Origin: Takakia lepidozioides
Taxonomy: Eukaryota > Plantae > Bryophyta
DNA length: 64,000 nt
Assembly: GCA_030704615.1 (NCBI GenBank)
Contig: CM060733.1
Location: 48,608,001 to 48,672,000, forward strand
Direction of reading: 5' to 3'
Each line of letters starts with the position of its first letter. Position 1 is the first letter of the stretch. Below the pieces are notes generated by a model. That model searched no databases. It saw only the letters and a program-made list of their open reading frames with translations, and was not told the origin of the DNA. Made by a program: the position numbers and the translations under genes. Shown one piece after another: positions 8,959-64,000 of the stretch.

Positions 8959-11605
8959 AACTTCTAGAAGGAGGGCTGAACTCCGGTAACACAAGACGAT
9001 GTCGGTCGACGTACTTATGGTGAAAATATTTTGAGGAAAGCCATTTCCCAAAATCACAATATTTTGACAAGGTTGGAGGGACCATTTTCAAATCTGTATT
9101 CTTCCGTTGTTCCGAAGGTTTTTATCAGCAGAAGATGGAAGAAGTCCCTGAAATGTTGTCTCGGGTATCGTGGATATGGTGATGACCTCAAAAAAAATAT
9201 CCTCCAATATTACGCCAACCAACAATGTCTTGTGCGACCGAAGTTTAGCTGTACTTCTCGAAGAATTGGTGGCCTTGCAGACTTTCAGTGAATCCCGAAG
9301 ATGATGAATTACTCGTATGCTCTTCAAAACATAATGTCCAAGTAATTGACCCTGGAGTAAGATGCTGAAAGTATCCAATTGGGGAGTAAGTATGCTGCTC
9401 GTATGCTTCTGGAGAGTGGCTCAGTGGCGAGTACGTTGATGGAGAGAGTGACGTTTTCTGCAAAATCTTCAAGGAAATAGTGTCGGGTGACCAGTCGAGG
9501 TTAATCTGTGATGGGCTGTGGTATTTCTGACGATTTACTGTAAAGCACTCGTAAACTGTTCTCCAACTAAATAATCTCCAACTGAATAACCACCAATGAA
9601 CTGATTGGAGCTATCACAACCAATGTCAACAATCTTATTTACTGCTAGGTGTTTGATACTATTGTTGTTCCTGTAGCTGAATTGTATAGTAGTCGTTTTG
9701 CTATTCCCATGCAAACAGTATCAGGTCTCCAGATACTGTCATATTCAGATTCCCGTATCAGCCACGACCCACCATCATTGACCAATATAAAATCATCAGC
9801 TGCATGTCAGCTGAGAACTCGATCTTCGATTCATTGTATGTGACTCCAGAGAAACACCCTAGCCCACAAGTAGTTGGCTAGCAGCTTGAGATATTTCTCC
9901 GGGCTGTGATTGAATGAACTGGAGATTTCATTCTTAGCTGATGGTTTCATGTAGGTGGTGTCTGATACCGATTTCGGAACATGACAGTCTCAATGGACCT
10001 GATGTTGTTGGAATGGGAATAGCAAAAAGACTCATATAGAAATCAGCTACATGAACATAGGCAGTATCAAACACCTTGAAGTACATATGATTGTTGAGAT
10101 GTTTGCACAGATTGTTTGCGACGGTGTTCTTCCTTCGTCCAATCCACATAAAAATGACGAGAATGGCCCTGGAGATTGACGTTAAATTGCTGACATTCTG
10201 CCTCATCGTAATACCATTTTGGTGTACAATGATGGACATCAGAACAGGTCAGCAAATAGAAAAACATGCGTGATCGCGCGATGTTAATCGTTGGTGTTCC
10301 TCAAAAGAATAATGAATCTCCAAACAAAGGATATAGGAACCAAAAAATACACCACGAGGATGCTGTCAATTGTTGGAGATCGGATTATGCAAGCAGGGAG
10401 AATAACTTCAAACAACTTAAAGACTAGGATTTTAAGATACTTGAACAATCCGCCAAGGAACAAGTGACACCATCAGCCCGGGAGTGCGTGTTAAGAAACA
10501 CATCAATGAGTCATCCAGGATGATGGTGTGAAATATTCCGGGACGGATTATGCAAATACCTTGAGTTCTCTCGCTGTAACTGACCTGAAGTAACTCACTA
10601 TGCCTGCAGAATCCTCACAGCTTCAAAAGACAGTATTTTCGTTGTTGATTGTGTGAGCATATAAAAAGCATCACTCCGACCAATGACAAGTGGCACTATT
10701 GAGGTAATATAATACTTAGGCAGTCGGCTGGAGAACCAGGACGATGATGAAGTCCGCTTTTCGAACCATGAGTGATCGCGCAACAGATCTCTGCCTCTAC
10801 CACCATTGAGAACCACAACGAGCCGAATGCATCCAGATTTCAATCAACCACGATGGTGTTGTCAGTTCGTTAGGGAAGGAATTTTGAAGCCGCCAAAATT
10901 ACTTCAATCCATTTGAAGAGAGGTTTTAACAAAGCTTCACAATCCGCTCAGGAACAAATGAGACGACCATCGTGGGTGCTTGAGTCATAGACGATGATTG
11001 TGTCACATGTTCCCCATCGTAATATGCAAACATCGGAAAATTCGTTCTCCTCCAACCTCCTCCAGCCTCCAGCCTCCAGCCTATTACCTCCACTGACAAT
11101 GAAGTCAACTTGTTTTGATAACATTTGATGGCACCGCTGATCCATGCTAGCTCCACAAGAGAAAGATATGAAAGAACCACGCGCGATCGCGCGTGGTTTC
11201 TCTCAAACTTCGATGACCAACATTAAGGCTGAGAGGATCTGGCATAACATTGACAGTTTTAAATAACGAATGTGTGTAATGATCAGGCCGGCCATAGTTT
11301 AATTCATCAATAACACAGAGTTGCTTCCCAAATGGCTCACACTCAAGGCATATGTTCGAGATCGCCGTCGGTTGCCACTGATAGCGGAACTTTGTGCAAC
11401 CGAGGAGATGGATACAGTCGGAGATTGATATAAGATATGACCAGACACCTCACTGGTAGCTGTACTTGATGACCTTGATGAACGTAAAGCCTCGCGGTCC
11501 CTCCGCTCAGTCTTTCGCTGCTGTTCTTATTTCTTCTCCTGTCGAATTTGATTCTGAACTTGACACTGGAATATAACTGTGTGGAGGCAGCACATAAATG
11601 AACTG
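8959..11605. repeat. Array of long imperfect inverted repeats (hairpins) with CGCGCGATCGCGCG-type palindromes
   Basis: Self-complementary arms at ~8959-9266, ~9600-10110, 10382-10614, ~10915-11050, and weaker ones at ~10683-10864 and ~11300-11605. Palindromes at 10267-10280 and 11175-11198. Confidence 0.7.
9245..9472 (-). pseudogene. Fragment of the YSPIGYF / CTD-like Ser-Pro-Tyr-rich ORF family
   Basis: SPSTYSPLSHSPEAY...YSPIGYFQHLTPGS aligns with YSPIGYFCDIPTG (50809-51132) and YSPI*YFSHLRSPGS (~50600-50640). Confidence 0.55.
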
Positions 11606-11857
11606 TTAAAGAAAATACAAAGATCATTGAAATATCATTGATCTCACAAAAGTCATGTGAAGTCAACATACGTATAGGTACAAATGATAAAACTGATGGA
11701 CTACACACAAAATATGACAAAGTTAAACTACATACCCAGATAATCGGGATCCTTTTGCGATGGGTGCCAAACAGAAACATCAATAAATCTCTAAAAAAAA
11801 CATCTTAATCGAATCATCCTAAAGAATGTATTCACTCCCAACTTTAAGAAAAACTAG

Positions 11858-12300
11858 GCTCTGATACCATTGTAACACCCAGGATCTACATAAACTAGCA
11901 TAGAAGTACTTCTCAACTTTTTCCCAAAACAACTCGATGCCTTCTAGGCTTTCATTGCAGGTTTATATACCCTTCACAATATGATTATTTTAAAGGTTTG
12001 ACTTGAGAGCCTCAAGTCAAAACTTCTTAATGTCAACATTCCTAGATTTGACATATTCTCCACAATACGACTTTATCAAAGATACTTGCTAAAGTCAACC
12101 TTCTTAGGTTTGACATATTCTCTACAATATGACTTTATCAAAGATTTGACCTACTCTCAGTAATATGAATATCTTAGAGGTTTGACTTGAGAGCCTCAAG
12201 TCAAACTTCCTTAAGCCTTAGAATCCTTCCTAATTATTCTGAAAACTTCTAGGGAACTTTCCTCCTCCATCTAGAACCTTCCAGATTCTACCTTGTTACA
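11858..12300 (-). mobile_element. Isolated 5' LTR (11871-12300) with tRNA-iMet PBS; internal region truncated
   Basis: TGTAACA...TGTTACA termini; PBS TGGTATCAGAGC on the minus strand at 11858-11869; internal duplicated TTTGACTTGAGAGCCTCAAGTCAAA hairpin units. Confidence 0.85.
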
Positions 12301-12509
12301 GTAATATGAGAACAATCAAAATTCGTTCGATGGGCCAATGAGGCGTTCATTTGTCATCTGGTTTTTGTTCATTGCGAAAAAAAAATCCTGCAATGCGTGC
12401 ACGGCTATTGCATCCATTGAACGGATGTGGTTCAAGCCCCTCTTTTGCCCGCATGTACTTGAACATGTGTGTGACACATATGCGGAGACACAACAGACGA
12501 ATAAATCAT

Positions 12510-14145
12510 TTACCTCCTCGTTCGTACAGCAACAAATGTCTCTCAATCGGTTCTCGATCATACAATTCGTTCTCCTCCGGCACCCATGGAACTTGTGGGA
12601 GCCGGATAAACCTGGACCTTTATCTGATTCCAATGGAGGTTGAGTTTTCCATGAGCAGTGAGTAGGTTTTGCCGAACAATGCCGAACTTAAGGGAATATT
12701 CATGGAATATTCTTCTGAACCAGTGTCCATCATATATGGATGAATATTCTATCAAGGAATATTCTTTCGAACCTGTGCCGAACCAGTTCGGACCACTTTC
12801 GAACCTATGGCACTGTTCGGTGCCGAACCTTCAATATTTGAGGGGTTATGTGCAATATAAATTTAGTAAAAATCTCATTTGAAATCCAAAATAGGAATAT
12901 TCTATAAACCGAACCTATCCCAAACCTGGAAGTGGTTCGGCAAATAGGTCCGGACGGTTCAGTGACGTTCGGCAAAACCTGCTCACTGCTCACTACTCAT
13001 GGATTTTTTAGCCCCCACTCCAATGCCTTCCCAGATTGCAGCAAAACTGCTCTCTCTCCCACCAATCGGGAATGCCTCCCGCATGTATGGTTATCTCCCA
13101 GTCAGATGTGACCCAGAAATACTGGGGATCTTTGACGTATGTCGGGTTTCTGGCATATATGCCATGCATCTCTCTGTCTTCATCCCATACCAAGTTCTTG
13201 CCCCAATGCACATAATTCATAAATGTGAATGGTAGCCCATCCAATGGGAGGTTGTGTCGATTGTATTCAAAACCTATGGGCATCCGATCTTCCAAGCCCC
13301 TCAGCTCATAAAAAATGGCTCGGGATAAGACATGTGAGATGGAACATATGTCCACATAATCCAAGCACATGACATCCCTCTGGGTCGTATGGATTCCTGC
13401 ACATCGAACAAACTGTACGATCTGATATCCATGATGGCAAAACGCGTCGTGGTATCTCCTCCCTCTGGGCCGGTTTGATGTGGCTGGTCATCCTTGTTGT
13501 GGTGTCATACTTTTCCTCTATCTCCAATTCCCAGTTTATGCTTCTGTTCGACCCTGAAATTCTGTGCTCACATCGATCGAAGATAGAATCCACATCTGCC
13601 CAGTTGGTATACTCGGCGAACACGTTTGATGCAATACAGAGATTATTATACCTTTGCATTTTGGCATAAATGCTATCCACGCTACGGTTCGACATGCGTG
13701 CGACACGATGCAAGCCTGACAGTGCCTACTCTACCCGTGCTTCTCTGGAGGCCAATTGGGTCGCCCATTGTACCCAATTCTCCCAATCGCCATTCAATAG
13801 GACCCATGCCCGAATCTCCAACGTTTTGGACAAGCGCCATGCGGTTGCCATGGCAATGTCCCGCTTCTTTGTAACGCGGTGGACATCTGATATCGGATTC
13901 ATCTCGGATTGAATGGCGACCCTCGAGCATTCCCCGGTTTCCAGTACTGGTTCTTTTCCTTTCCTCCTTTTCTCATCCGCAATTCGCTGTTCCTCAACCA
14001 TGGTTTTATCGGCCACAGGGTCCGTAATTTCGTGAATGATGAGGTCAATACTGCGATCGGGCATCGCAAACTTCCCATCCATGTCCACGACGTTTGTTCG
14101 ATCCTCATTGTGGACAACAGTGCCTTCATTGTTTGGAGGCATGTC
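12510..14145 (-). pseudogene. RING-finger protein gene, frameshifted, MITE-interrupted and 5'-truncated
   Basis: CSMC-x12-CGHMFHLTCL RING-H2-like pattern in ORF 13306-13713; overlapping ORFs 13726-14178 and 13008-13370 read as one frameshifted gene. Confidence 0.65.
12653..12998. mobile_element. MITE with TIRs and internal CCGAAC/GTTCGG repeats
   Basis: GAGCAGTGAG(T/C)AGGTTTTGCCGAAC inverted at both ends; flanks reconstitute TTCCATGGATT (AT or CATG duplication). Confidence 0.85.
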
Positions 14146-14324
14146 TGACAAATCTTCTGTAATAATTGGTTTGTCCAAGGAATCTCCTTAGACTCTTAAC
14201 ATTTACTGGTGGTGGAGAGGCTTTAATGGCCTCTGTCTTTCTATGATCCACAAGAAGTCCCCTCTTACACACAATGTGTCCCAAAAGCACCCCTGAGTTC
14301 ACACAGAAAGTACACTTCTCTGGG
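14146..14324 (-). mobile_element. About 180-bp Gypsy RT fragment, same family as the 28.6-41.3 kb element
   Basis: Near-identical to 35665-35839 (PEKCTFCVNSGVLLGH...LRRFLGQT.YYRRFV). Confidence 0.9.
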
Positions 14325-16235
14325 AGGTCATGACCTTGGTCCTTTGCGATGACGATGTTTGGGAGAAGTGGCAGGAGGTTTTCAGAGAGTGGGAGAAGGG
14401 AATCCTCCTGGACATTAATGGAATGAAGCACAAGGGTGTACGATCGCAGCTGACAAAATCTGCAGTCTGCAAACTGCAAGGATTGAACCCCCTCCAAATG
14501 AAGAAGGTTGCGCAAAAGATTTTGGACTTGAAGATCTGTGTTCGTAGTCCTTACAAGAGAAAAGACCCCAAGATTCTCTGTCTGTCCGATTACATCAATC
14601 GAATAAAGGGCAGACGGTTTATCATCGATGATGTCATGGTGGTATTGGGATTTGACGCCAGGAGCAAGCAGCATCCTCTGGAGCCGTACACAAAACACAA
14701 TAGCTCGAAGTGAAGAAAATATACAAGTTCAACAAGTCGGAGTTCGAGACATTCCGATCGAAACTGGGGGCCAAATACATGAAAAACAAAGTGAATACGA
14801 ATATGAAGACCTAGAAAGTGAGTGACGCTTTCATCAAATACGTGCTTTCATGCAAGAAAAGGGTCGAAGACATAGAGAAGGAAATGGACAACCTCAATGA
14901 TACCTTCAAGTCACATTACCAGTGCATGACTTAGTTGTTTTCATGCAAAGAAATTACAAGAATATTTTCGATGCGTTCTTCGAACAACAGCTGAGACCTA
15001 ATGCATTTGTCTTCTTCTCAACGCAGAGGTCCTCTCCCAATCTGGTTTCGTACATAAGGTTTGGCGAGCGTCGGAACAAGTATATTCTACTTCAGGGGTT
15101 GTATCTTCCTGGAGAGTTTGACAATCCTTACAAGAGCCGGCCAAAGTCATTTACAAGGCCATTCATGTGCCTTGATTACGTATTTCCTGCAACAGCTGCC
15201 CAGATTGAGAACCACGAGGAGCACCTGCAGGGAGTCTTGATGTTCAGCCCCATTAAACCAGTGATTAAGGCTCCGGACATTGAGCTCACAGAACATGAGA
15301 GAGAATGTGCCGCTTATGAACACGAATTGCGGGCAGAGTCGAGCGACTACATTGCGTCCTTATTCTGTGGCGAAGGAATGGCGGCTGTCAATCTCTTTGG
15401 AGGAGTAATGCTAACATCGGCTCTCCACGTAAGCACTTCCATTTCCCATTTCCTATTCGATTTCCTTTTCCATTTCCATTTCCGAAACACAACATTGGAA
15501 CCTTGTGCGATCACTCATTCATCATTTTTACTCACTGTTGGCATCTTTTTGCAGACTAGGAACGTCCAAGTCCTTGATATAAACCACAACCTGTAAAAGA
15601 AATTATGCGCGAATAAGATTGCCACAAATTTCACATTCCTCCACCCGGAGAATAAGGACGGAACCGAGGTTGGCGATGACACAGGGGGAGGGTAGGAGAC
15701 CCACAGGCACAATGACGAAAGAAATGACAATGACGAACAAAGAGATCTGGAGACAAACTAGGAAGAAAGTGACGGAAACGAAACGTTGGACAAAAATGAA
15801 GAACTTGAGGGAGGTGAGGAAGACAAAAGCGACTACCAACACGATGATGCCATCAACACCTTCTTGCAAGAAGAGATAAAACAAATTGAGCATGGCAGAA
15901 ATCCACCAGCTGAACAAGCAGGGAGGGTATTATCTGAAGAAAGCCACCATCCACAAGCCATGCCAAATACCGGTGAAGGAGACAATCCCGTGACTACTGT
16001 GCTGTCTTCCTCCATTGAAGAAGTGGGGGGAGACAATGTACAGGATAACGCTGATTCTAGGGACATCTTTGATAAGGAGATTTTAGAAATAGACTCAATG
16101 GTGGGATTCAGGCCTGTGGAGGGGGATATGCCATTACGGATATCACCATATCAAGGTTTAAGCCAACGAGTTAGAGACATCGTTGATGGTAGGCATCTAG
16201 GGCATTGGTCGGCGATAAAAATTGTATTGACGTGA
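14325..16235 (+). pseudogene. 5'-truncated spliced gene, possibly a degenerate DNA-methyltransferase-fold protein with an acidic tail
   Basis: Frameshift- and stop-linked ORFs 14330-14713, 14922-15596 and 15786-16235, with a GT-AG intron ~15429-15554. ELR...IASLFCGEGMAAVNLFGG...ALH|TRNVQVLD weakly resembles beta-MTase motifs X-I-II. Confidence 0.4.
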
Positions 16236-16414
16236 GTATTGCACATTATGAGTTGTCTTGACACTTGTAAACAAAATTTTCAAAGTTGATATAACATCAT
16301 AATCTTTAAAAAAATGGAACTAATAACCTATTGCTTTGTGATAGTCTCATGAAAGAATCGAAACATATACGGAAGTCTAATCACCAGCATTTTCTGTAGA
16401 TCCGTGAGTCAAAT

Positions 16415-19400
16415 ATGGAGGAAGTGACACATACCAGAACAAACGACACACAACAGCGTACAATGAAGAAACAATACGACTTGAGAGTGAGGATATCGTT
16501 GCCCAAGATGGCAGTTTCAGAAACTGCGGGCGATCGTACGAGGTTACTTATGGGAGGGGTCGAGAAAAACATACCGGACGGCGAAAGACCCGTCGCCGGG
16601 GGAGATGGCGTCCAATCCTCATCCGGCTTGGAGCAAGTGTCGCCAAAGCTGGTACTTCATTCTCCGCCTTCTCTTTCCTTCCTGCTTTCTGGACATTGCG
16701 AAAAACATCCAATGAATTAATAATTATTTCTTAATGGGCAGGATGATATGATCTATCCACCACACGAGTTTTCCCAAGCTGTCAATCCCGGGGATTTCTT
16801 TGCTCTTCCAATGGGTCCAAATGGATGTCAGCCCGGATATTATGTCCCGGTTTTGGGTGTCGGGTTCCTATGTAAGGTCTACCTCCATAATGGGCCAAAA
16901 ACCCCTCCCGCAACGCAACCTTGTATCTCCGTTGGAAAATTTAAGTTAGCAATGCGACATGAGGTGGGAGACTTTCTCAAATGGGTCGTGCATAAGTTTT
17001 GGGTCATCTTATGGAACACTGGCAAAGAAGAGACTGTCGTGGATTTCAAATCAGCCTTGTTCGGGAGGAATGCCCACAAGGTCATGCATTACAGTTCCGA
17101 CCAATGTATGGAACATAGACTTACTTTCAACGCATATTGGCCTACGCTTCCTAAGGCCCCAATTTACTTCAAACGACTTTACGACTTGTTCGTAGACCCC
17201 GACTCTAAAGCCTACAGGTCTAACACCCTGCTTATAGACGTTGTTGGGAACATGTACAAGTCTTTCCTCAATCCTCTGAGCCTGATCATCTTCCTACCTA
17301 AATACGAAACACTTGTAGATGCATACAAAGATGATTTTTTGATGGGTTATCTGAAGCCCCACCTGGAGAAGTTGAGGCATTCAAAAATAGACACTTGGGC
17401 CTTCAATGAGCAGAACCCTTTTTGTATACCTAAGGATGTCTACTTTCAGGATGCTAGAGTGAAATTCACTAATCGCTGGGACTTTCCATGGCCTAAGAAC
17501 AAGGAGGAATGAGATGCACATCTAAAGTAGCTACAGGCCCTTGAATTAGAGCATGGAATATTAAAGTGACTAATTTTGAGAATGAACTGGGATTTGGAGG
17601 TCATTGAGTTCCTTATCTGGTCATGGGATTCTTCTTTTCTCCACTCTATTCAGCTTTGATTTACTTAAGTGTCTTTATCACTCCTTCACAGATCCGACAA
17701 CCTGGATCTCCACCTGCGATGGGACCCCGCTTGATAATTTTTGACGTTAATGGAGTGTTGTGCAATATAATGAAGCGCCAAAGCACAGGCCCTGCTCCAC
17801 GCTTTTTGGAATTTGATTACAGAATTCCTGCTATTGTTGGGTATCGGCAAATCTTTAGACGGGAGATGTACTGGGAAGTTTGGCAAGAGTTACACAAGCA
17901 CTTCATTTTAGGTATCTGGAGCTGCATGATGCTTAAAAACTTAAATGTCGTTCTGGATTTGCTCCTATGTGGTCTTCCACGGCCAGCGTTCATCATGTCG
18001 CAGGAGGATTGTATCATTTGCCCAAGCAATCTGCACCCAAATTACCGAACGGGACAAAAACAACCTCTTGTGTTCCTGAAACCACTTCTTAAAGTATGAC
18101 AGAGTTCTGAAGGATATTACAATCAGAGTAACACTCTGCTAATTGATGATACGGCTTTGAAGTGTTTGCTGAACCCTCCTGAATCATGTCTTCTTCTCAA
18201 GTCTTTTGAGAACATCGACGTCAACGATTTCTTCCTTCGCAAACTTAGAGATTTTTTGCTTGGCTTCTTGAAATTTGAAAACGTTTCGAGCTTCTTGAAA
18301 GCAAGGAGAATAGGTTTTCCACCTTTTAAAGTTAACGATCCACAGTTCAGGCCTCTTCTTGACTATATTGACAATTCACAATATCGTGATTTCCGAGTAA
18401 ATGATAAGTAAATATTCGCGACCTACTGTGGACACAATTTACTACTTAATATTGATTGTCAAGACCATGGAATTTCAGTCTTCTTCTGATATTCTTCTGC
18501 ATTGCATGGAAATTGTTATATTGCCAATCCATATGCAACGGTCAATGGATTCATTGTTCCTTTATGTCCGTCGATTTCTTTTCGGAACCACGCGCGATCA
18601 CGCGTTCTTCCAACTCAAATTTATTGCTTTGTTGACATATATTTCATTTGCAGGTATGCCCATATATTCTCCACGCCACAAATGCATCTCCAAGTGGCGA
18701 AACATGTTCGTCTAATATTGTTGACGATGTAGAAATGATCAGGCCAAAAGCTTTCCAAGGACCTGACAACTTGTTGTCTAATCATGCATCCATTGCTGTT
18801 ATGGAGCGTGATCCCATCAGTGTTTCAGATGTAGTTTTGAGGCTCAAAATGTCAAAAGGTGAATCCACCGTTAGCAGGGTCGATGATTTAACTGGGGTTG
18901 GCTGTGCATAGTGGAAAGCGACTCTCAATATCTTGGGGAATCCTCTTTGGAGCCGTCCTTATCTCAACACTTTCCACCAGACGCCATCATGGGGCATCTA
19001 CATGAGTCTACCAAACAACACGTTCCATTGGTTGCAACTGTTGCTGAACTGCCTCCTCATCATGTCGTAATTCCAAGCGTGTCACCGGATCACGAGGGCT
19101 GGACACCTCACCTGCTGATAAGTCAGGTGATTTAATTCTATTTTATCCATGCGTTTTATTGTTACCGTGTTTCTGTTCATCCTCCGATTTTCTTTCTTTA
19201 CTCCAGGCCAGAAAAGCTGCAATGTATGACCTTCATGTGAAGCGGCAACTTCTGTGGGGTTGTATTCCAAGGTAATCATTTTTTTCCGTTTGAATTCGGT
19301 TCAAGATGTGCAGAAAGAAAGAAACCAAATTCCTTTGTCAACCGTCAGCGAGAAGGTTATTGAACTCATTCATTCGCCGACTGAGGTCAGCACACCGACA

Positions 19401-31972: not shown

Positions 31973-31974
31973 CG

Positions 31975-51189: not shown

Positions 51190-51585
51190 TGAAGAACGCG
51201 CGATCGCACGTATTTGGTCCACAGTTTTCCCTCCACTAACGTAAAATCCGATTTCAAGCAACAACGAGGTTGCTAAGCATGGCGAACAGATCCCTATCCA
51301 TGACTCTGCCAGACCTGTGGATCGATACTCGGCTAGTATTGTATTGTCTTGTGGTCCACACTGAATACCTCCTCCCATCATACATAAGAGTGACCATGTC
51401 AGCAGCACATCCAAGAATTATCATATTATATGTGCATGACAAGACTGATAAAGTGCGTCGTAAGGTTTTACTTGACATTGTATGATATGAACTAATGTCT
51501 TGCGAATCACTTTACAGTTTTGAGGATGCACTCATAGGTGTCCTCATCTATGTCTAGCTAATCATCTGGGTATCAATAGTAATGT
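51190..51585. repeat. Palindrome plus degenerate hairpin unit, paralogous to 63550-63990
   Basis: CGCGCGATCGCACG at 51197-51210; 51345-51580 aligns with 63715-63947. Confidence 0.8.
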
Positions 51586-52534: not shown

Positions 52535-55500
52535 CTACATAACATCATCAGCTGATACTTCATCATCCGTGTCATAAGCCTGTGATTCAGAGGCATACAC
52601 ATCCATGAAAGCCTCAACTCTACGCAACCTATCCACGGATTGTCCAACAATAGCTGCTCTTCGGTCAAACAACAGATCATTGGAAAGACCTACATCACGT
52701 TGTTGATGTATTGAATGCAAAGCTTGGGACTCGGCATACGAAGGTAGATAAAACGATGAAAGAGGACTTTGGGGTAGACTATCGTAGATGGTCCGCACAA
52801 TCCCATCACTGCATCACATACATGTATACTTATGTTAACAAATCAAATGGGAATGGTTTGCTTTGCAAATAATATAGAGATTGCAACAAAGGGAATGGAG
52901 GCGAGACATACTCACTAGGAAGTACTGCCGAGATGAAGACCAAGCTTGCGCGCCACCTTAGGAGCGGGGGGTTCCAACAAACTCACAGGACGTTGAATGG
53001 TTGGAGTTACCACAGATGAAACCAAAACGGGTTGAGTATTTTGAAGTGCAGAGAGACGTGCTGCATACAACGTCTGGTCCCCCTCAAGACCAAATACGTG
53101 ACGTCCAGACTCGCGGGCAGCAATAAATGTAGAACCTGCAGGAAAAAAACATGCAATGATGATATTATATCGGATAACAGTTAATGATCATGAATCAGCT
53201 CAGAAGATTTTAATTACAAAATGGAGACCAATGCAAACCTGTGCCAGCTGTGAGATCCAAAATGCGGGAGCCAGAGGTGAGCATGTCTCCAACAACACTT
53301 GCATGAAGGCGGGACTACGGTCTCGCGCACCCCTCCAGGCTTGTTGAGGAGTTTGCATGGGTAGTGCAACATCTGGAATGTGGTTGTAGATGGCATCCAA
53401 CTCAACAGGGTCTGCAAGGGGGTCCACAACTTTGCCAGACTCACGCAGTTTGAATAGTCCTCCTTGCTTGGTGAGGACATGGGCGTGGAAGAACATGGTC
53501 TGTTAGACGTGCCATTTCCACAAAAACAGTGCACCCGGATGGTTTAATAATATGTATGAGAGTAGGAAGATGAAACATCAAACAATGAGATATTGAAGAG
53601 GGATGATTTTTACCTTTCCTGTCTGAGTGTGTAGAGGGGGGTATTGATGCAAGTATATTTCCTTGATAATACGGAAATAGAGCTGCCCCTGGAGTAAGAA
53701 AAGAGCTCCAATGCAAAGAAATCATCGGAGCCCTGCAAGAACACCAAGCATCCATTGTCATCCAACAGGTCATTAGCAATGGAGAATGCATACTCCCAAT
53801 ACCGTTTATCAAAAGCATTCCAGGGAGGAACCTGTACACCATCCAAACAGCCCTGTACAGGCATTCCTGTTGGGCAGTCCACGATGATCATGTCCACAGC
53901 CACATGCACGCTTTTTCCATCCACAACACTAGACCAAGTTCCTGGCAACTGCAAACAACATACAGAAAATGTAGGAGTCAATAGCCGGATGATGAGGATA
54001 TAAAAACATCGAAGAATTCCTTACATTCAAGTTTGTTTGTTGGGGGAAACTCACATTTTTAAGAACTCCATGAGCTCTTTCAAGGTCGCATCAGGAGATG
54101 TACTTGAGGCCTCCACCATATCAATGAAATGAGTAGGCATGATCTTCATGCGATACATGCTAGGTGCACCACCAGAAAATGACACTGCACTGTAAGGATG
54201 TTCGCCTGCCTTTGGCTTGTTTCCTCGAGTAGTAGGTGCAGGCACTACAACCAACTGATTTGAAGGATGTGAAGAACTACCAATAGGACCAGCAATAGAA
54301 GCCACACCTGCATTGGGGGCCACACCTGCATTGACATCCGCACCTTTTCTTTTTCGTGATTTGCGTTTTGGTACACCCACAACGGCAGGGACCACTTGGG
54401 CTACAGCGTCAGCGGCCTGTGTAGCAATCTGTTCTGCATGCTCCAGATCAAGAACAGGGACTTCAGTGGAGATACCCCCTTCATCACTCACTGACTGCCT
54501 GCGAACACATTCCTTATGAAGTCCCATTTCTGCATAGGGGATAGTACCCTTGGGCATATCCAAATACCAACCCCCCCCTTCCCGGTGTTCCACACCCCAA
54601 TCTTCCTCAATTGCAGGTGTGTACATGGAAGCTTGTTGAGCACCAAACTTCCAGGCCATCAGAAACTTGGGCTCAGCCTTAAGTCGATCACTCGGTACAA
54701 GCACAAATCTCATGTACCTAAAATACAAACACATTCAAAGTTATTGTGGAGACAAATATTTATGCAACCTGTTCAACAATTGAACAAGCACATTAGAAAC
54801 ATGTATATCCCAATGTACTAGAAAAATACTTGAAGCATAGACATTTTTGACTTACAAGGTGTATACACTATCCATGTACAATGCAATGGAAAGATGGTAC
54901 CTGAATAAAATCCGTCTCACCACCTTCTCCCCACCTGTTTGTTGTTCCCAATCATTGCCTCTGAATGGCCCTTTGGCAATGAGAACTCTCTATGAAACAA
55001 CTCATTGAAATGTCATCTTCCATGTATCCATGTAGTCTCCCAGACTCTCACTCTCTCCTTCCTCCAAGGCAACATGAAATTGGCCAAGCTGAGTGGTGTA
55101 CAAGGCAAACTGAGCCAGGCAACTTGCGAAGCTGCCAGAAAATACAGTCAGTTAAATAACTATGTTAATGTGTCATCAACAAAATGAATTAATTGCATTG
55201 AGAAGATAGTGATTGTATATGTACCTGCCACCAAAAAGTCCTTCTATTCAGCCAAGGATCAAGTGTTGGCCCACTGATAGGCCCGGGTGGAAAAAAATTA
55301 CGGTCGTGAAGTGTTTGGTCTCCATTCCATATATGTAGCCATTCCACCTTTTCTTCAGGATCCACCGGGCGCAATGTTCACCATTTTCTCTTGGGTCATT
55401 TCCTCTGATCCTGCCTTTACACGTGACCAATGCAGTTTAAGTTCTTGGAGAAACCCCTCTCCAAGGGTTGGATCAGCAATAGGAAGCAACTTCACAAGCT

Positions 55501-56680
55501 GACTCTTGTGTTGCTCCCTTGCTTTCAATCCAGCCTGTCTCATTGTCTTCAAGGCCTCTTGACTCTTTGGCCCCTCAGCAGTTTGTAAGCTTCCCCCGCC
55601 ATGCGTTGGGCCTCAACAATATCATGCTGCCAAAAGAACCAAAACAGTTCATAACATGAACCAGAGGTGAATCTTGTCTATGGATGCAAAGAATGAAACT
55701 TGGTTAAGACATGATGTTACCTTGTACAAAATCTCTGTCATTGCATGGACTGTCAGGTTATACCAAGTCTTTCCTGCTTTCTTGATGCATTCGTCGTATT
55801 GCTCTTTCCTCAATACATTCTTCCATTCAGAGACAGGTGTAAGGCCAATCATATTGACCTTGCAAACCAAGTGCACAAATTTGGATGTAACATGTGCCCT
55901 CTCTGTTGCCCTGCACATATAAAATATGATCATTAGAAAGAAGATGTGTATATGTACATCCATTGAGCAAGAACATGACAACATTGAACATGAAAGTAAA
56001 TGAAGAATAGAAAGGAAACTCACACATTCACTCCATCCATGATGGACCTGAGGGAACCACGATTTTCAATGTCCGCATTGAGCACCCAACTTGTCACACA
56101 GACATGTCTTGACAAGTTGGCCCCATGAACTTCATTGATATAGGGATACCATGCTTGAAGCCTATGATTCCCATCCCAGACATGAAACATCTTCCCCCGA
56201 AGATGATGCAACTTTGGCTTGGACTCAAGATACTTCTCAAACTCATCATTGACTGTTTTCCAATGACTATCCCATGTAGAGATGATATCAGGACCTACAT
56301 CTATAGTAGATCCATCAATCCCCTCAACAGAAACATAGAACACGGCTGCTCCTGGATGGTATCCAGAATAGAAGTCTCCTCTAAGCTTTAGGATGTCGTT
56401 GGCAAGGGCGGGCCTAACAACCTGCATAGAAATCATGCGACACAATGGAATGTCCATAACTCCATCCTCAATGAGGAGGGACCTGAAAGTTACATTCAGA
56501 TCTTGTTTCTTTTCCAGAATAATTGCCTGTTTGGCATCTAGAGAAAGAGGATCACTAGATGTTGTATCCTCTTCATACTCATCTGCCCCCCAATTCCCTG
56601 CATCAATGTCGTCAATAATGGTTGCAAGCGTCCCGGCCTCCACAGCTTCAGTTGTAGTAGTAATTTCCTAATTCCATAGA
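52535..56680 (-). CDS. Multi-exon ParB/Srx-like domain plus beta-class N6A/N4C DNA methyltransferase-like protein
   Basis: ParB motif VWDGNHRL (56158-56181); motif-IV-like VDMIIVDCPTG (DCPT at 53868-53879) followed by LLDDNGCLVF; SAM-binding ILDLTAGT|GSTFIAARESGRHVFGLEGD joined across the GT-AG intron 53136-53238. Possible exon 1 at ~58069-58146. A few 1-bp frameshifts. Confidence 0.8.
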
Positions 56681-56869
56681 CCAAAACAGTTCAAGATGTC
56701 AGTGTATGAGAAGAGCACATGTGTGAATGTATAATATGTAAAAAGAGCAGTTCAGTGTCATGGTTGCATGAAGAAAACAAATGAATTTGGATAGTCAACT
56801 AATTCCATGAATATCCTTGTCTTTCAAAGCTTACAACTTGGAGCAAAATACAGGCGTGAGCATCCCGAC

Positions 56870-57985
56870 AGAGGACCTCCGACCACCTACGCCGGCGCAT
56901 ATGACACATATGTGCAACCAACTCAAAATTTGACAAGATTTGAGGCCCTGAAGAAATTTTTGCTCAAGGAGCTCCAAGCATATGCGCCGGCGCATACCAT
57001 GGAAGGGAGGTTGTAGCCAAACATACAGGAGCACCTTGAAAGATCAAACTAGGCCTATGGAAGCATGTGGAGTTGTGGAGGTGGCAACGTAGAAGCTTTG
57101 AGATACTTGAATACTGTGATCAACCAAAATAGGGAAGGTTCCCCAAGCGTCTGCGCCGACGGAGGTGGCAGCCTCGACACTTTGGAGCTTACGTAACACA
57201 AGGAATATACAACAAAAAACCAAGCTCCAAGCATCTCCGCCGGCGGAGATGCTTGCATGAGGTTCCTGAAACCTAGGAGCTAAGCAAAAAAGATTGTGCT
57301 CAATGGGTATGCGCCGGCGGATATGGCAGCCCAGCCGCTCGGAGCATCAACAACTTATGAGAATGCGGAGAAACAAAAGAGATGGAAGGGGGGAGAACTT
57401 CCTGAAATATGTGAGCAGCCCTGCTGCACGGGTCTGTGTTGACAGAGGTGGCAGCCTTGGCGCTTTGGAGCTTCCGTAACACAGGGAATATGCAAAAAAA
57501 ACCAAGCTCCAAGTGTCTCCGCCGGTGGAGACGCTTGCAGGAGGTTCCTGAAACCTATGATCTGAGCAAAAAAAATGTACTCAATGGGTATGCGCCGGCG
57601 GATATGCCAGCGCAGCCCACTCGGAGCATCAACATGCGGAAAAACAAAGAAGATGGAAAAGGGGAGAACTTCCTGAAACATTTGAGCAGCCCTGCTGCAC
57701 AGGTATGCGCCGGCGGAATACGCCAGCCCAACCCGCTCGGAGCATCAGCAACGTATGAGCATGCAAAAAAATAAACGGGATGGGAGTAGAGGAGCACTTC
57801 CTGAAACATGCGAGCATCCCAGCTCCAACGGTATGCGCCGGCGGAGGTGGCAGCCCAGCCCTTCCAAGCATCAGAAAAAACCAAGGGGAATGAGCTGTCT
57901 CCGGCGGAGACGGTTGTGTGTATGTGGAGATTCGCAAACTTGTGAGAGTTGAAGTGACTTAGGCATCTGCGCCGGCGGAGGTGCT
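56870..57985. repeat. Tandem repeat (~140/280-bp units) with about 11 CGCCGGCG-type palindromes
   Basis: 57220-57500 is repeated at 57500-57780; TGCGCCGGCGGA recurs at e.g. 57310, 57591, 57706, 57834 and 57968. Confidence 0.85.
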
Positions 57986-58431
57986 AGATTAAGAGCAGCT
58001 TGGTGGGGCTTATGCGATGGCGCATATGCCTAAGTGCAGGTCATGAAAAAAAACAAAACTACAGCTTACCTTCTCCGTCCGCAGCTTGCCTCTACCACCA
58101 CCACCACCAGCAACGCCTCCCCCTCGAGTGTCCTTCTTCCTCCCATCGCCGCAACAGCTCGTTGCCTCGGGGTGGTATAGTATAAGGCCGAGATGCGGCG
58201 CCTCCGTCTCCTCTTCGCAACGGGAGTCTCCAGGGTGTAGAGACTAGAGACGTGTTAAGTGCTTGTGTAGTTTGTGTGTGTTTGTTTGGGGGAGTGGCAA
58301 GGGATAATGTGCAAGTATACTAGACTACGTTAGTGTAGTAATGATACCGGGTTAGTCATGTAGTAATGGCAACAAGTTTAACTGAATAGAAACAGTTTAT
58401 TAACAAAAAAGTAGAGGTTGTTTCATTGAAT

Positions 58432-58500
58432 AGAGCATGGCTTGTTGGTAAGGTTGTGGTGTATTTTCCACAAGGTTGCGGGTTCAAACCTGCCCCGCCA
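58432..58500 (+). other. tRNA-like remnant (A/B box) between the divergent MULE genes
   Basis: TGGCTTGTTGG, then T-arm-like GCGGGTTCAAACCTGC, ending CCA; no acceptor stem. Confidence 0.4.
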
Positions 58501-59192
58501 AGGAGAGCGGGGAAAAGGGGGCGAAGGCTAAGGCCAAATTGGCCAAATCTGAAATGTGAACATTTTTTATACACTCTGGCGTTAGTGCTTTTTGGACTAC
58601 ATGGGTTACACGTGATCCTCAGAAGATGGTTGTACGATTGACATGTTACTTTTGGCGGCGCCTTCATAATACAATATAAAGTAAGTGATAAAGTAACTAA
58701 ATATTTTGTTATGGGTGTCTTAATCAATTTATTGGTTTTAGAGTCAATTGTCGCCACAAATACTTGTACTCATTACTCATACATGAGTAATCAAAGAACA
58801 AATCAACATACATGTCATGGGATTTGATTGTAAATAAATTGTGCCGTCTAGTGTGTCAGTTCATAGTTGGACGATTAATCAACGATTGGTTGTAAAATAA
58901 ATGGAAACATGCAGAGCATTTATGTTTCATATGCTCATAAGAAGAAAGCAGTACATTGGATTCTAAGATCTCAACAACGGCGCCGTCGTCGTCTTAAAAA
59001 TAGGGGATAGTCCATTTAGTTGTTTCTGTCAGAGAATAATATGGATGGAGCACATGCCTCAAAAAATTGGACCTTCTGGATTGATGATACACATAAGTAA
59101 TGTAAGCCATTTAATGTATTTGCATAAGGTCTTGCAAGATGTGCGCTTTCATTCATTTTGCATCTTCTCTCAAACTTTGAGGGCATTGCCAA

Positions 59193-61760
59193 ATGTCTAC
59201 ACCAAAATATGCAGTGCTTTCATGTCCACCTGATGCAAAAGTGGTTCGTTATCCTTGCAATGGAAACAAGTGCATTATCCCAGAACCTTGGTTATGCAAT
59301 AGATTCAAACTTGTTCCGGGTTCAGTTTTTTTGGAGGATGATGGAGATGATGATGCCTCCACAGTGTTGCTTCCAGTTTTCAATGACGGCCAAAAGCAAT
59401 GGGAGTTGTTTCCAGACACTTTCTCCAAGTACCGTGTCACAGGTACGAGCTATACACAGTCACATGATGAGAGGCACACTTCTATTGCAAGAAAGAACGA
59501 TCAAGCTGCAACAAATGGGAGTTGTAAATTGAAGGAGGAGGTTGCAGATTCGGCGAGCTTGGGGTCTCATAATTCGGATTGTGTTGAGGTTTCTAAGAGT
59601 GTATTTTGTGGATCTCAACCTTCCTCATCTGCTCATACGGTCTTGCTTCACGACATGAAGCCTCGGAAAACTCCATTGGACAACACCACGTCTGATTGTT
59701 GCGAATCTGCGAGGGGTTTATCTTCATCTCCACGACTAGCAGGGGAGGCTACATCTGCATTTCCTTCTGGTGTGTTGTCCATTTTGAGTATCTTGGCCAC
59801 TGCTCGGAGGAATGGATCAAAAGGAGAGCTTTCTACCTTGGACTATAGTCACATTCCAGTGCATCGTGTTTGGTGTCTTCCTCGAGCTTTGATGGAAAAA
59901 GTGATCCACGAACTCCCCCCCGTGGTCAAACTACGTACGGACCGTGGTTCACAGTCCCTCCAAGGCATGGACCGCAAGTTTGATGGTCATCCTTGGTGCA
60001 AGACCAATACCTACAATATGTCTGGTGTTCCAGATCATGTGAAATGTAGTAAGGTTCTTTGTGTTGGAAAGCTCATATGTCAAAGCAGCACTTGCCCCTT
60101 CTTCAAGAAAGAAGGAGAACGGAATGACCGCTATTGGGAAGGCAATGCAGACAAGGTGTTCATTGCAGAGCCCAAGTTCCATTCAACCAGTTCAAGTGTA
60201 GTTTCTGCAAAGAAAGACCTTTCTGTGAGGCGCATTGTGGGGCAAGAATGTACTATGTCACAAGTTCCCTTCCAACATACACGTGTTGCAGTTCACGTTG
60301 GGTTTCATAACCATCCATGTGCCAAGGGCGAGAATAGAGAGGCTGCGAAAATGCATCAAGCATGATTCAAGAGCACGTTAAGATGAAGCCATGGTCGACC
60401 CGGGAGCTATTTCCTTGTCAATGGCCCAAAAGCTCTTGATTGATCGAGTTCTTGTGGCTGATGGCACAGAGACAGTACGTCTTGGGAGAGGCTTTGGAAG
60501 ATATTCTTGAAGAGTTTGCCCATGTTTGTAGCCCCAATGTGAAAAACAAGGTCGCATCTGCACGTGTCAATTCCATCATGTCCATATTGGAGTTGAAGCG
60601 TCTGAGTACATACCATTTCATTCACAGCAATCTCCTTCCAGGCCAGCATATTTCTCATCTCCCCATGTTTTCAAGATGTCTGTTGCTGGTCCCGGGGTGT
60701 GGTGTTGATCTTGTGCGTCGCATGAGTGAGGGGGATCTACGCACAAGTTGGGTAGTATTTGACCATGTCAAACGCATCAAGGATTGGACAACTCTTGCGT
60801 GTCATGTCTATGAACCATATGTCAAGCGAATGATGACCATTGCCATTTGCGATATGAAAAAAGAGGATGCAGATGCTCAGGTGTTATTCTGGGAGATGAT
60901 CAATGAACAAGCAAAACTTGCTGGCTTGAACAAACCAAATTTTGCTGGCTTCATGGCGGATGCAGCAGGAGCGAATTGGGCTGCTGTTCGAAGGGTTTAT
61001 GGATCTGATCCCAATGTCCAATGGAAGGTAAAGAAAGAACATGTTTATATCATTGGGCTGAAAGCCTCCGAAGACACACCAACGACTATATCTTGGAGGA
61101 CTTCCGTGAAAGGCACACTCAGCTCTGTTATGAATGGAAAGATAGTGCTACCTTGGAGGATGCTACAACCACATACATTGCAATTCGGGCTTGGTGGCTC
61201 TCTTCAGGAGCATGCACAGAAAAGAGTCTGCCAAAACTAGATTCATGGCTTGCATGGTGGCACTACAGATATCGAATGTGGGGCCAATGGATGAGAGAGG
61301 ACATGGATGTGGAGGCAGATGCAGATATGCCTACCACTAATTTGTCTGAGGCAGTCTATTCTGCTTGGTGGAAGACAGCAGGCAATGGGAAAAAAATGAA
61401 GGTGGATCTATATGAGGCCACCATGCATGACATGTCACGAGCTCTTTTGCAGCAGGCAACATTTTACAGGCACACCACAGGAAAGACATGGGGGACGGGG
61501 CCCGACAAAGAGGAGCTCATGTTGCGTCAAGCAGCTAGATCTAATAGCCCAGCAAAAATGGGTAAGGTTGTACGTGGCATAGTAGCTGGAACACCCATGC
61601 ACACAAGGGGGGTTCAATTGGAGGGAGACAATCGCACTATTCCAGTCAAACGCAAGTTAGGCGATGAGCATGGTGGGCCAAACGAATCTTGGAGGTGTGA
61701 TATGAATGTAAAGACTGTTCCAGTGCGCGCCACTGGGATGCCCAGTCCACACCAGCAGTT
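59193..61760 (+). CDS. MULE-type DDE transposase with N-terminal WRKY/GCM-like Zn finger (frameshifted)
   Basis: CVGKLICQSSTC...HVGFHNHPC; catalytic D (VVFDH), D (FMADAAG), CxxH (CLYHW) and E (TTNLSEA) across ORFs 59193-60365, 60440-61240 and 61021-61830. Confidence 0.85.
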
Positions 61761-62040
61761 TCATATTAACCAAAATATGGACTTTTGTACTAACAAATGC
61801 ATATGTGTCATGTTTGGAACCACCACATAGCATGTCTGTTTGTAATGCCAAGCAGTTCTATAATTTGAAAACTTGTATGACAGGTACACAAGTTCCATTT
61901 TAACCAAAATAGGAACTTCTGTACTAACAAGTGCTATGTGTCATGTTTGGAATAAAGTAGTAACAAGATAATTACATGTCACATGCATGAAAATGAACGG
62001 CACAAGTTAGAGGTTCTTTTTTTGTGCATTTCATGTGTCA

Positions 62041-63015
62041 CTAAGAAGTTGAACTAGGGTCCTTCTTTAGCATAGCCCTAACCTCTAACTGGCTAAGGGA
62101 AGGTTGGTGGATCTCATAAGCCCCGGCGCATCCTAGATGCACGTTGTACATGAAGTACATGTGCTTACAAGGTAGATATGTTTGTTTTTTCTTCTTGACG
62201 GATAGCTCATCAAAGTCGGGACAATCACAAGATGGAAATTGACCAATGTATACATTGTAAGCCAATCCTGCTCTGGTAGATCCCTCTGTTTGTAGCTGGT
62301 AAATTCTCCCATAACCTGGCTGAGGCACGTTTCTGAATCCACGAACCTCAGCAATAAGAGTCTCCGCTGACTCTTGGCGACTCAAGTCGAGGAGTCGGAT
62401 CCCGACGCCGAATGCGCACCCCATAGCGTGTAGTGGGATACTTACCCACAGGAAGGACAACACCTTGATGAATATGTTGTTCCACTGGAAGTGGTCCCAC
62501 AGGAAAGTTCGGATCAGGAACGTTGGGAGGATGGACTAGTCGAAAACCTGCAAGGGTCAAGTTGTCCACCTCTTCTTGTGTAAGGTTGGTTCCAACCTTC
62601 ACAGGCCACACGTTAGGTATACCCGGTTTTCCCAAGCAATAGGATGGCACGGTCCCTCCAACACACGACAAAACATCTGTGGGGCAAAACCAAAAAACTT
62701 GCAGTTTTGGTTCTTTCATGTTCGGTGCTAGTAACTTGCCAGTGAAGCAAGGTGCAGGACTTCCTTTACCTTTCCTGATGAGCGCTTTGCATTTATCTTT
62801 GGAAACTTCAACCAAGGCAGAACAACGAACCATGGAAGCAGGACCTGTCCGCTGAATCCTGAACAATGCATCGGAAAAGTCTTGTGTCTCTCTCACTGGA
62901 TTTCCCCATTGCATTGGCTGAGGAGGGATAGCAACATGTGGATTTGTCTCACAGAAAGTCGAAGAACTAGGAATGTCATGACTTGATTTGGCCAGGGATC
63001 TTGTATTCTCTTCAG
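62041..63015 (-). CDS. SWIM zinc-finger module, likely the transposase C-terminus in inverted orientation
   Basis: YNVYIGQFPSCDCPDF...LPCKH (CxC-xn-CxH); ORFs 62348-62914 and 62041-62463 are linked by a frameshift. Confidence 0.8.
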
Positions 63016-63293
63016 TTTAAGGTGGTGCATTAGTTGGAGTTAGTGGTCACATGCATCTTTGACCATTGACTACTGATTTTGTTAGCTAATATTTTTTATT
63101 TTATTTTTTTTCTATATACATATGATGTAACATTTGCATATGCAATAAATACGTCGTATTCTATGTTATATAACTCCACTGCATACAATCTACAATGTGT
63201 GCATACAAATTTGTCACATGCATATATAATAAGGGATTTTGTGCATGCATGCACGCAACCTGTGCATATGGAATAGCAACCCCCTAGTGATGT

Positions 63294-64000
63294 TGTTGGA
63301 CCCACAAATAGAAGAACCAAACGAAGCACAGGCAATCGCGCGTGCTTCTTCCATCGATTATTTCACATATCCATTCTCCTTCCATTCTTCCCTAAATAAT
63401 CTCATAAATTAAACGACACAATCGATGACCAGCCTAATCGATGTTGACGACAAGTAATATTACTAACTATTGTGGGAAGTCAGAAAGTGGTTAAACATTT
63501 GGGATTTTGTCACTTCACTTTGTAGTGGCCTCATTAATGTAGGAACAGAAACACGCGCGATTGCGTGATTTTCATCTGTTTCTATAACATCCATATTCTA
63601 ATGGAATATATGTAAAGAATGCACAATCATTTTGATAACTTCCACTTGTTTTTGATAAAAAAAAAGTGGTAAAGCTAGAGCAAATAAATAATAACTTACT
63701 TAGTGTGCAAGACTAGTCTTGTGATCCACCCTGAGCACCTCCTCCAATCATACATAAGATTGACCATGCCACCACATACAGGAACTATCATATTCTGTGT
63801 GCATAGCAAGACTGATAAAGTGCGACGCAAGATTTTAGTTGACATTGTCTGATGAGAACTAATGTATTGCCTATCACTTTACAATTTTGAGGATGCACTA
63901 TGAGATGTCCTCATATGTGTTTAGCTAATCATCTGGGTATCAAGAGTGTTGATGATGGTCCCACGAATAGAAATACCAAATGAAGCACGCGCGATCGCGC
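63294..64000. repeat. Hairpin/palindrome array continuing past the window end
   Basis: Palindromes at 63323-63348, 63554-63567 and 63988-64000; hairpins at ~63355-63510 and ~63700-63943. Confidence 0.75.

Follow-up and report, generated by a model that had tools for sequence, protein, structure and literature searches.

The window, a stretch of 64,000 nucleotides from Takakia lepidozioides, consists of older DNA interrupted by later insertions (Table 1). Removal in silico of four TSD-bounded insertions leaves approximately 15.8 kb of this older DNA, referred to here as the base layer. It contains a RING gene, three NIF-domain genes, a kinase gene, one heptad ORF, five strong hairpins and seven palindromes. 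One of the four insertions is an 11.7-kb Mutator-like transposon absent from the first-pass annotation, which had proposed the subtraction of TSD-bounded insertions. The subtraction succeeds for these four, but the junctions at 11871-12517, 14146-14324 and 24124 carry no TSD and are truncated retroelement or repeat remnants.

Table 1. Features of the window in order of position.
Feature	Position	Strand	Remarks
Base-layer module 1	8648..11871		YSPIGYF ORF; hairpins 8990-9235, 9600-10122, 10345-10650; palindromes 10265 and 11178; multi-copy
Truncated LTR with Met primer-binding site (11872-12300) and very high-copy repeat fragment	11872..12517	-	Non-TSD junction
RING-finger gene remnant	12518..14145	-	Pfam RING; MITE at ~12650-13003
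Gypsy RT remnant, 179 bp	14146..14324	-	93% to 35663-35839; non-TSD junction; contigs diverge at 14146
Spliced gene, methyltransferase-like by eye	14325..16235	+	Intron-skipping contig
Three tandem NIF/HAD-III (FCP1-homology) genes	16400..19837	+	Profile matches; palindrome inside at 18589
Ty3/Gypsy gag-pol	20400..24123	+	gag-PR-RT-RH-INT; upstream LTR/primer-binding site not visible
Chromovirus integrase and 3′ LTR, 5′-truncated	24124..26761	+	Non-TSD junction
Hairpins 26800-27180 (paralog of 9600-10122) and 27240-27818	26762..27818		z -15.7 and -20.5
Kinase, C-terminal part	27890..28589	-	HNDLSPDN, DWG
Nested Gypsy element	28590..41295	-	TSD ACATG; splits kinase
Kinase, N-terminal part	41296..41950	-
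Nested chromovirus	41951..48693	+	TSD CATCC; gag-pol internally inverted
Base layer, upstream side of kinase	48694..49860
Solo LTR	49861..50585	+	TSD CCAAT; missing from other copies
CTD-like ORF, six YTPxSPE heptads (50639-50767) and two YSPIGYF-type motifs	50586..51159	-
Palindrome 51195 and start of ~670 bp tandem repeat unit	51160..51585
Young Mutator-like transposon, separate insertion	51586..63284	+	9-bp TSD, degenerate TIRs
Remainder of tandem unit 1, and unit 2	63285..64000		Palindromes 63327, 63552, ~63986; continues past window end

Public contigs from the runs X1, X3 and X5 cover all modules of the base layer, which is thus multi-copy. In base-layer bins free of high-copy repeats, the summed X1 depth is ~700-9,700, a measure not equal to copy number, with many single contigs at depth 40-77. 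Pieces of the base layer or gag-pol (10 from X3 and 7 from X5) lie 3.2-8.1% from the majority copies, compared with 0.05-0.4% for pieces of the Mutator-like element (n = 5); module 1 is 3.4-5.5% from the majority contigs. Two nested inserts are missing from other copies: the solo LTR, through an empty-site joint (49860 -> 50611) in X1 and X5, and the MITE, through a contig joint at 12613 -> 13016. The tandem palindrome-bearing units, by comparison, are found in other copies too (joints 63995 -> 63397 and 63579 -> 51346). Because the layer is multi-copy and other copies lack these two inserts, its genes, hairpins and palindromes are cargo of mobile DNA, as had been proposed. That they form one giant element is unproven, because of the three non-TSD junctions, two classes of contig depth and the lack of a visible terminus or transposase of its own. 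In X3 one class (~10-16) comprises the module at 9-10.6 kb, the NIF cluster, the gag-pol and the heptad segment, and the other (27-42) the RING gene, hairpins C/D, the kinase and the 48.7 kb region. None of the displayed contigs bridges the three non-TSD junctions, and a 2,395-nt contig departs from the window sequence at 14146. No relative carrying the modules together was found in another species.

The palindromes reside in four separate base-layer segments, with none in the ~48 kb of other DNA, including the nested Mutator-like element. The sequence CGCGCGATCGCGCG occurs exactly only once in the window (11180) and its remaining copies are degenerate; the shared palindrome described at 10.3, 11.2, 18.6, 51.2 and 63.3-64.0 kb therefore survives as a family but not as an exact repeat. 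A search with an 18-mer core at up to 4 mismatches, its pattern derived from the 11178 copy itself, gave six matches (10265, 11178, 18589, 51195, 63327 and 63552), whereas 40 shuffled sequences averaged 0.025. A seventh copy (~63986) is cut by the window end. Every copy falls within the base layer, which makes up 25% of the window.

The hairpins are fewer than the dozen or so first counted. Folding of 25 candidates yielded five strong hairpins (z <= -8, range -8 to -20) and four marginal ones (z -3 to -5), one of the latter being a MITE. The hairpin at 9.6 kb and the one at 26.8 kb are indeed paralogs, ~82% identical and mutually inverted. All five strong hairpins form a long stable foldback, as plant miRNA/hpRNA precursors do. 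The suggestion that they are small-RNA precursors gained nothing further: no G:U strand bias is seen over the five (47 plus vs 61 minus), compensatory changes occur in 1 of 150 columns, Rfam gives no match, and no convincing target was found inside the window.

CTD-like heptads had been assigned to more than one ORF. The array is present in a single ORF of six repeats, and the second ORF at 9.4 kb (9248-9610, minus) has none. Residues Y1, T2, S5 and P6 are kept in all six heptads and change only synonymously, so the heptads are selected as peptide. P3 is kept in five. The Pfam Rpb1 repeat (PF05001) scores E 0.048 on this ORF, at 14.4 bits against a cut-off of 20.3. The heptads share the 7-residue period, Y1, P3, S5 and P6 with the RPB1 CTD (YSPTSPS; PF05001) but differ in T2, a free position 4 and mostly E7, and also in that there are six of them, carried by a small ORF that encodes no polymerase. 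The YSPIGYF motif, said to recur at three sites, is exact at 9388 and 50913, but reads YSPI-stop-YF at 50640. A two-region comparison found the YSPIGYF regions to be alike (E 1e-6).

The triple FCP1/SCP-like gene was recovered by Pfam as three NIF-like ORFs. Gene 2, read through one stop, matches PF03031 above the cut-off (E 1.6e-7), while genes 1 and 3 are sub-threshold (E 0.01 and 0.0056). The NIF (PF03031) domain is common to the FCP1/SCP CTD phosphatases and UBLCP1. FCP1/SCP enzymes have the catalytic motif DxDxT, both aspartates of which are required by SCP1 (PMC7281111), whereas no DxDxT occurs across the three plus frames of 16300-19900; motif I is absent, DVNG and DLTG in the three genes. 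DxNG is found in 15 of the 16 NIF relatives retrieved (of 18 hits), including ordinary moss and Asteraceae genes. These relatives make up an ordinary plant/algal DxNG subfamily, often with tandem NIF domains, to which the genes of the window belong. The best structural relative of the domain is UBLCP1, a proteasome phosphatase (PMC5451543), and the nearest profiles are UBLCP1/HAD-IIID. The proposed role of “eraser” of CTD phosphorylation thus loses its footing.

CTD kinases of the CDK7/9/12 type have a CMGC/CDK sequence with HRD and DFG. The kinase gene at this locus is genuine by Pfam (E 1.3e-7). The protein is non-RD. Its top PDB matches are MNK2/MNK1, with a single CDK-type entry at rank 7 of 13. 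The HNDLSPDN and DWG motifs, with MNK2 and not CDK7/9 as best match, are not CDK-like, and the “writer” of the first-pass annotation lacks support. A RING-like ORF is present as described (Pfam E 0.0014, below cut-off). In the gene upstream of the NIF cluster, a contig labelled as RNA by guess skips 126 nt, corresponding to a GT-AG intron at 15429-15554, so that splicing seems to have taken place in the transcript of a related copy. The methyltransferase-like or DNA-binding look of this 14.3-15.4 kb gene gained no support on follow-up comparison, which weighs against the transposon reading set out below.

The best reading, with a probability of roughly one half, takes the base layer as what decay has left of a giant cut-and-paste DNA transposon family, in one copy or in two related ones. 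The transposase gene and ends would have been deleted or would lie beyond the window. The window shows no terminus, TSD or transposase of the base layer, which is truncated and continues past the right end. The earlier remark that no replication gene or termini are visible thus holds for the layer, but a transposase does exist (59181-61830), belonging to the Mutator-like insertion. As ends and transposase are not seen in the window, the superfamily is unassignable. The element may have been mobile as a unit of ~20-30 kb, possibly mobilised in trans, and the old gag-pol would have travelled along as a fixed passenger, a situation known from algal KDZ/EnSpm/Sola elements. A dimeric DNA-binding protein encoded by the element could dock at the ~24-bp dyads that lie between genes and within the tandem units. 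The genes for the RING protein, the non-RD kinase and the DxNG NIF proteins would have been captured from host signalling and would aid the element's own expression or turnover, and the heptad peptide may act as a docking motif for CTD-binding factors instead of a built-in kinase/phosphatase substrate. Later retrotransposon insertions, three deletions and the Mutator insertion would then have broken the copy.

Such elements have precedents. The giant KDZ, EnSpm and Sola-1 elements of Ectocarpus (PMC12477816), to which the base layer may be likened, exceed 10 kb, are multi-copy and transcribe extra genes of unknown function; nested TEs are fixed among copies and the transposase is often dead or absent. 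The base layer differs in its land-plant host, its RING, kinase, NIF and CTD-like cargo, and the lack of ends or a transposase seen here. The Plavaka (EnSpm) elements of Bostrychia, with PAG1-3, are 17-19 kb and carry accessory genes; their tandem inverted-repeat arrays adjoin a ParB accessory gene and are proposed sites for an element-encoded ParB-like protein (10.1101/2025.02.11.637652). The base-layer dyads resemble these arrays, but the window's putative ParB-like/methylase-like gene lies in the nested MULE, with none confirmed in the base layer.

The main rival, though improbable, takes the base layer for a giant Ty3/Gypsy LTR retrotransposon, with the gag-pol at 20.4-24.1 kb as engine and the upstream plus-strand genes as extra ORFs with internal promoters. 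The gag-pol, in gag-PR-RT-RH-INT order with its 3′ end deleted at 24124, starts ~570 bp past the last of the three NIF genes and has the same orientation, and no LTR or Met primer-binding site was found between them. In depth (12.2 in X3, 7.6-7.9 in X5) and in divergence (3.2-4.4%) the gag-pol agrees with the NIF cluster (12.2, 5.9-9.1 and 4.5-6.6%), although a fixed passenger would give equal depth too. Giant Gypsy elements with extra ORFs are known: in Burro and the orchid Gypsy_Pa_2799, gag-pol adjoins non-canonical ORFs, as here, and RING-type domains are among the extra ORFs of Burro (PMC6431247, PMC9289625). Unlike these, the base layer has cargo on both strands, and neither an LTR pair nor a 5-bp TSD around the cargo was found within the window. 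A genomic RNA would also not easily accommodate an intron, long hairpins and genes on either strand. The gag-pol may be either fixed passenger or engine. Its missing upstream LTR counts against the passenger view, since a passenger insertion should keep its LTR.

Equally doubtful is the view that there is no single system, but at least two distantly related repeat families piled up by nested insertion and deletion. The three non-TSD junctions, the two depth classes, a RING contig that continues into other sequence, and paralogous hairpins whose arms are no more than 69-81% alike and which are inverted relative to each other favour it. It is opposed by the palindrome, which is present in low-depth and mixed segments and on both sides of all junctions, by the TSD-contiguity of the low-depth heptad segment with the high-depth kinase segment, and by the similar age of all modules.

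A more ambitious form of the transposon reading is a rather long shot: a single giant land-plant family in which a private 24-bp operator controls a selected Pol II CTD-like peptide, hairpin-RNA clusters, a kinase, a RING ligase and, as readers of phospho-heptads, DxNG NIF pseudo-phosphatases. Such a family would be a transposon-encoded transcription-control kit, which to our knowledge is on record only for large DNA viruses. Already on the plainer transposon reading, the known giant accessory-gene transposons being those of algae and fungi, a family in a land plant whose cargo comprises kinase, RING, NIF and CTD-like genes and which has its own dyad motif would widen the class and offer testable candidates for how large transposons stay transcribed. 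In the literature searched, with most subscription journals outside it, no plant transposon is described with such a cargo.

The first-pass annotation had gone further, to one element encoding an active writer, eraser and decoy for the CTD together with small-RNA precursors. This is quite unlikely. The peptide selection on the heptads, the joint presence of NIF domains and kinase in one layer, and five hairpins far above chance agree with it, but both enzymes lack CTD-enzyme hallmarks, the hairpins show none of the further signs sought, and an unbridged junction separates the NIF from the heptad module.

Dispersed dyads, a RING protein, a kinase and CTD-like peptides are reminiscent of large DNA viruses. 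Nevertheless, an endogenous viral fragment, with palindromes as origin or enhancer repeats, is very improbable: multi-copy NCLDV-like loci are known in a moss (PMC4083422), but the text of that paper names no kinase or phosphatase, Pfam, NCBIfam and PHROGs scans of the surviving 15.8 kb found no viral core gene, exact-short-pattern scans (weak) found no relative in viral contigs, the NIF relatives are plant and algal-type genes, and there is the apparent intron.

The young Mutator-like element carries its transposase on the plus strand, with a SWIM segment that is inverted in this copy and scores above cut-off. There is no direct Pfam MULE match for the transposase, which scores 0.93 in Atlas, with PF10551 accounting for 24 of 30 hits. 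The element has a degenerate TIR of ~100 bp and a 9-bp TSD with one mismatch, present as a single copy in the sister tandem unit. The 9-bp TSD and a transposase with SWIM are shared with other Mutator-like elements (PMC6446971). An accessory gene (~53000-56670, minus) lies head-to-head with the transposase and has the motifs DGNHRL, DCPT and ILDLTAGTG, partly kept in relatives; it has no Pfam, PDB or fold match (model pLDDT 44), and its ParB and methylase assignments are putative, from motifs only. The arrangement can be compared with Sola1-1_Ec32 and its ParB-methyltransferase accessory gene; here the accessory gene lies on the strand opposite to the transposase, and the catalytic motif reads DCPT. 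This nearly unmutated MULE is a candidate for self-methylation.

The base layer, the older DNA left once insertions bounded by target-site duplications (TSDs) are removed, may be a giant accessory-gene DNA transposon, a reading held at roughly even odds (about 0.5). The model for it is the Ectocarpus KDZ/EnSpm/Sola families, which are described as having fixed nested transposable elements and missing transposases (PMC12477816). The dyads of the layer, palindromes of ~24 bp with an 18-mer core, are likened to the inverted-repeat arrays of Plavaka elements, as outlined in a second study (10.1101/2025.02.11.637652). These dyads would be putative binding sites of an element-encoded protein, for which the sole candidate gene lies at 14.3-16.2 kb. 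This gene is apparently spliced in a related copy, seen on a contig of a run that is only guessed to be RNA. The gene matched no known family, and a methyltransferase at 14.9-15.4 kb, like the candidate one of the Mutator-like cargo, was not supported.

After subtraction the base layer amounts to 15.8 kb. The TSD subtraction proposed by the first-pass annotation holds for three LTR insertions and extends to a Mutator-like element, but not to three junctions (11871-12517, 14146-14324 and 24124), where truncated repeats without TSDs make the layer discontinuous. Among the contigs displayed, none bridges any of these junctions, and one of 2,395 nt departs from the window sequence at 14146; a gap among the contigs displayed is no proof of a break. 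The stretch 26762-64000 is contiguous by TSDs and joins hairpins C and D (26800-27180 and 27240-27818), the kinase, the heptad ORF and the tandem palindrome units.

Insertions removed to expose the base layer
Feature	Position (nt)	Remarks
LTR insertion	28590-41295	clean 5-bp TSD
LTR insertion	41951-48693	clean 5-bp TSD
LTR insertion (solo LTR)	49861-50585	clean 5-bp TSD
Fourth insertion, Mutator-like element	51586-63284	absent from the first-pass finding

The palindrome core occurs six times at ≤4 mismatches, against a shuffle mean of 0.025, with one more occurrence at the window end. Every palindrome falls in the base layer, a placement with a chance of ~2e-4 if the six sites are independent. 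The exact 14-mer is found once in the window, so the claim of a palindrome common to distant parts stands for degenerate copies only. The hairpin at 9.6 kb does have the proposed paralog at 26.8 kb, in inverted orientation, and the YSPIGYF tie is upheld for the regions at 9.4 and 50.9 kb, which are homologous to each other. These marks link the segments, as members of a single family or of several related ones. A pile-up of separate families in the base layer, which we consider unlikely, is to be weighed against these ties and beside the three junctions without TSDs. The palindrome was also considered as a Helitron 3′ end and rejected, as inspection found no CTRR within 15 bases.

The base layer is multi-copy, with many contigs covering every module. 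In the public run X1 its depth is ~700-9,700, versus 40-77 for many single contigs, although depth is only indicative. Two inserts are missing from other copies of the layer: the solo LTR, whose empty site is seen as the joint 49860 to 50611 in runs X1 and X5, and the MITE, with the joint 12613 to 13016 in run X1. Divergence from the majority contigs is 3.2-8.1% in all 17 tabulated base-layer or gag-pol pieces. Among the base-layer differences A>G and T>C predominate, an excess that would fit a methylated, decaying copy. Two depth classes are seen: the 9-10.6 kb module, NIF cluster, gag-pol and heptad lie in the lower, and the RING gene, hairpins C/D and kinase in one two- to three-fold higher. 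The gag-pol at 20.4-24.1 kb matches the NIF cluster both in depth and in age; neither an upstream LTR nor a Met primer site is visible for it, and its role is that of a fixed passenger or else of the engine. A giant Gypsy element driven by this gag-pol is an unlikely account of the layer, on a par with the pile-up.

The first-pass annotation had proposed a CTD kit in which a kinase writes, the NIF genes erase and the heptads act as a decoy. Its observation is partly confirmed and its interpretation partly supported; the kit itself is not supported. The NIF genes hold genuine domains lacking DxDxT, the motif that SCP1 requires (PMC7281111). Among solved structures and NCBIfam models the nearest match is UBLCP1/HAD-IIID, and UBLCP1 is a proteasome phosphatase (PMC5451543). 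In a full HMMER scan 18 relatives were recovered, with 28-37% identity. Since DxNG is present in 15 of the 16 read, and those with a name are ordinary genes of Sphagnum and Asteraceae, DxNG is a subfamily signature and not decay; two NIF domains are frequent among them, so the tandem arrangement is nothing special. NIF gene 1 had no match in a word-indexed protein search, which is weak evidence. By its HNDLSPDN and DWG motifs, and with MNK2 as best match, the kinase is evidently no CDK. The six YTPxSPE heptads keep Y1, T2, S5 and P6 invariant with only synonymous codon differences there, and third positions hold 40 of the 76 pairwise base differences. The array is accordingly read as a selected, CTD-like peptide, although it scores under the Pfam cut-off. 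An active CTD kit is very unlikely. An endogenous virus (compare PMC4083422) is the least credible origin, with no relatives in the viral contigs scanned.

Five hairpins are strong (14 shuffles each in one of the folding tests), which favours their proposed role as small-RNA precursors. Against it, these five show no G:U strand bias, compensatory change affects only 1 of 150 columns, and neither an Rfam match nor a convincing target in the window was found. The hairpins could serve as precursors of RNA or be DNA foldbacks. Arms derived as inverted copies of a coding gene were rejected, as third-position excess, codon pattern and PDB match are all absent.

The Mutator-like element (MULE) is a separate, multi-copy transposon nested in the base layer. 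Its transposase matches MULE clusters in the Atlas (0.93, 24 of 30 matches) and aligns with unnamed proteins bearing FMAD and CxFH motifs. It has a TSD of 9 bp (one mismatch), which the sister tandem unit has as a single copy, and the TIRs are degenerate. Used as query in a metagenome scan, the transposase identified 80 related loci, which fall into 45 groups and amount to 552 kb once redundancy is removed. Homologs of NIF, RING or the heptad region were not found in them, nor was a palindrome at ≤3 mismatches; their kinases are of HRD/HHD type only, at locus L032. The MULE itself likewise contains no base-layer palindrome, and so the buried layer is not driven by this transposase. The scan shows that the MULE does not carry the base layer; it bears on the context of the MULE and not on that of the layer.

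Head-to-head with the transposase lies an accessory gene with motifs that we take to be ParB-like and beta-class methyltransferase-like. Of 20 related locus groups that offer 6 kb or more of upstream sequence, 6 carry a homolog in the same head-to-head position; one further group has it downstream. Neither domain was confirmed by profile and fold searches. Both folds predicted in the analysis are of low confidence (pLDDT 31 and 44), and Foldseek gave no match. A word-indexed protein search, itself weak evidence, gave one match for the transposase and none for the ParB-like protein. This domain pair has been published for algal transposons (PMC12477816). Degenerate tandem repeats at 57149-57983, between the two genes, include a perfect 28-bp palindrome (57228-57255) and are possible binding sites of the ParB-like protein.

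The MULE diverges from the majority contigs by 0.05-0.4%, a near-identity that suggests recent activity. No RNA run is listed as containing 50.6-60.5 kb, a result with no bearing on expression. At 52000-62000 this youngest element and the contigs show almost no substitutions and many single-base indels; the assembly therefore has long-read indel errors, and frameshifts there are not readable as decay. Frameshifts within the window are partly assembly errors. The SWIM-bearing segment (~61757-62991) is inverted relative to the majority contigs of three runs, through either a local inversion or an assembly error.

The window is eukaryotic, TE-rich DNA of a land plant: it is contained in a run labelled 'plant metagenome', and Sphagnum genes are among the NIF relatives. 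The plant would be a seed-free one. Positions 1-3000 probably hold the 5′ part of a minus-strand host gene with no relation to the elements. Two repeats with tRNA head and A-tail (3452-3816 and 8407-8646), SINE-like by eye, flank a decayed Copia element and were rejected by eye as element ends. The 12.7-kb Gypsy element bears several long additional ORFs (coiled-coil, with no assignment) 3′ of pol (29640-33191). In the nested chromovirus, the gag-PR-RT-RH part (~43030-46010) lies in reverse orientation, with the LTRs and TSD around it intact.
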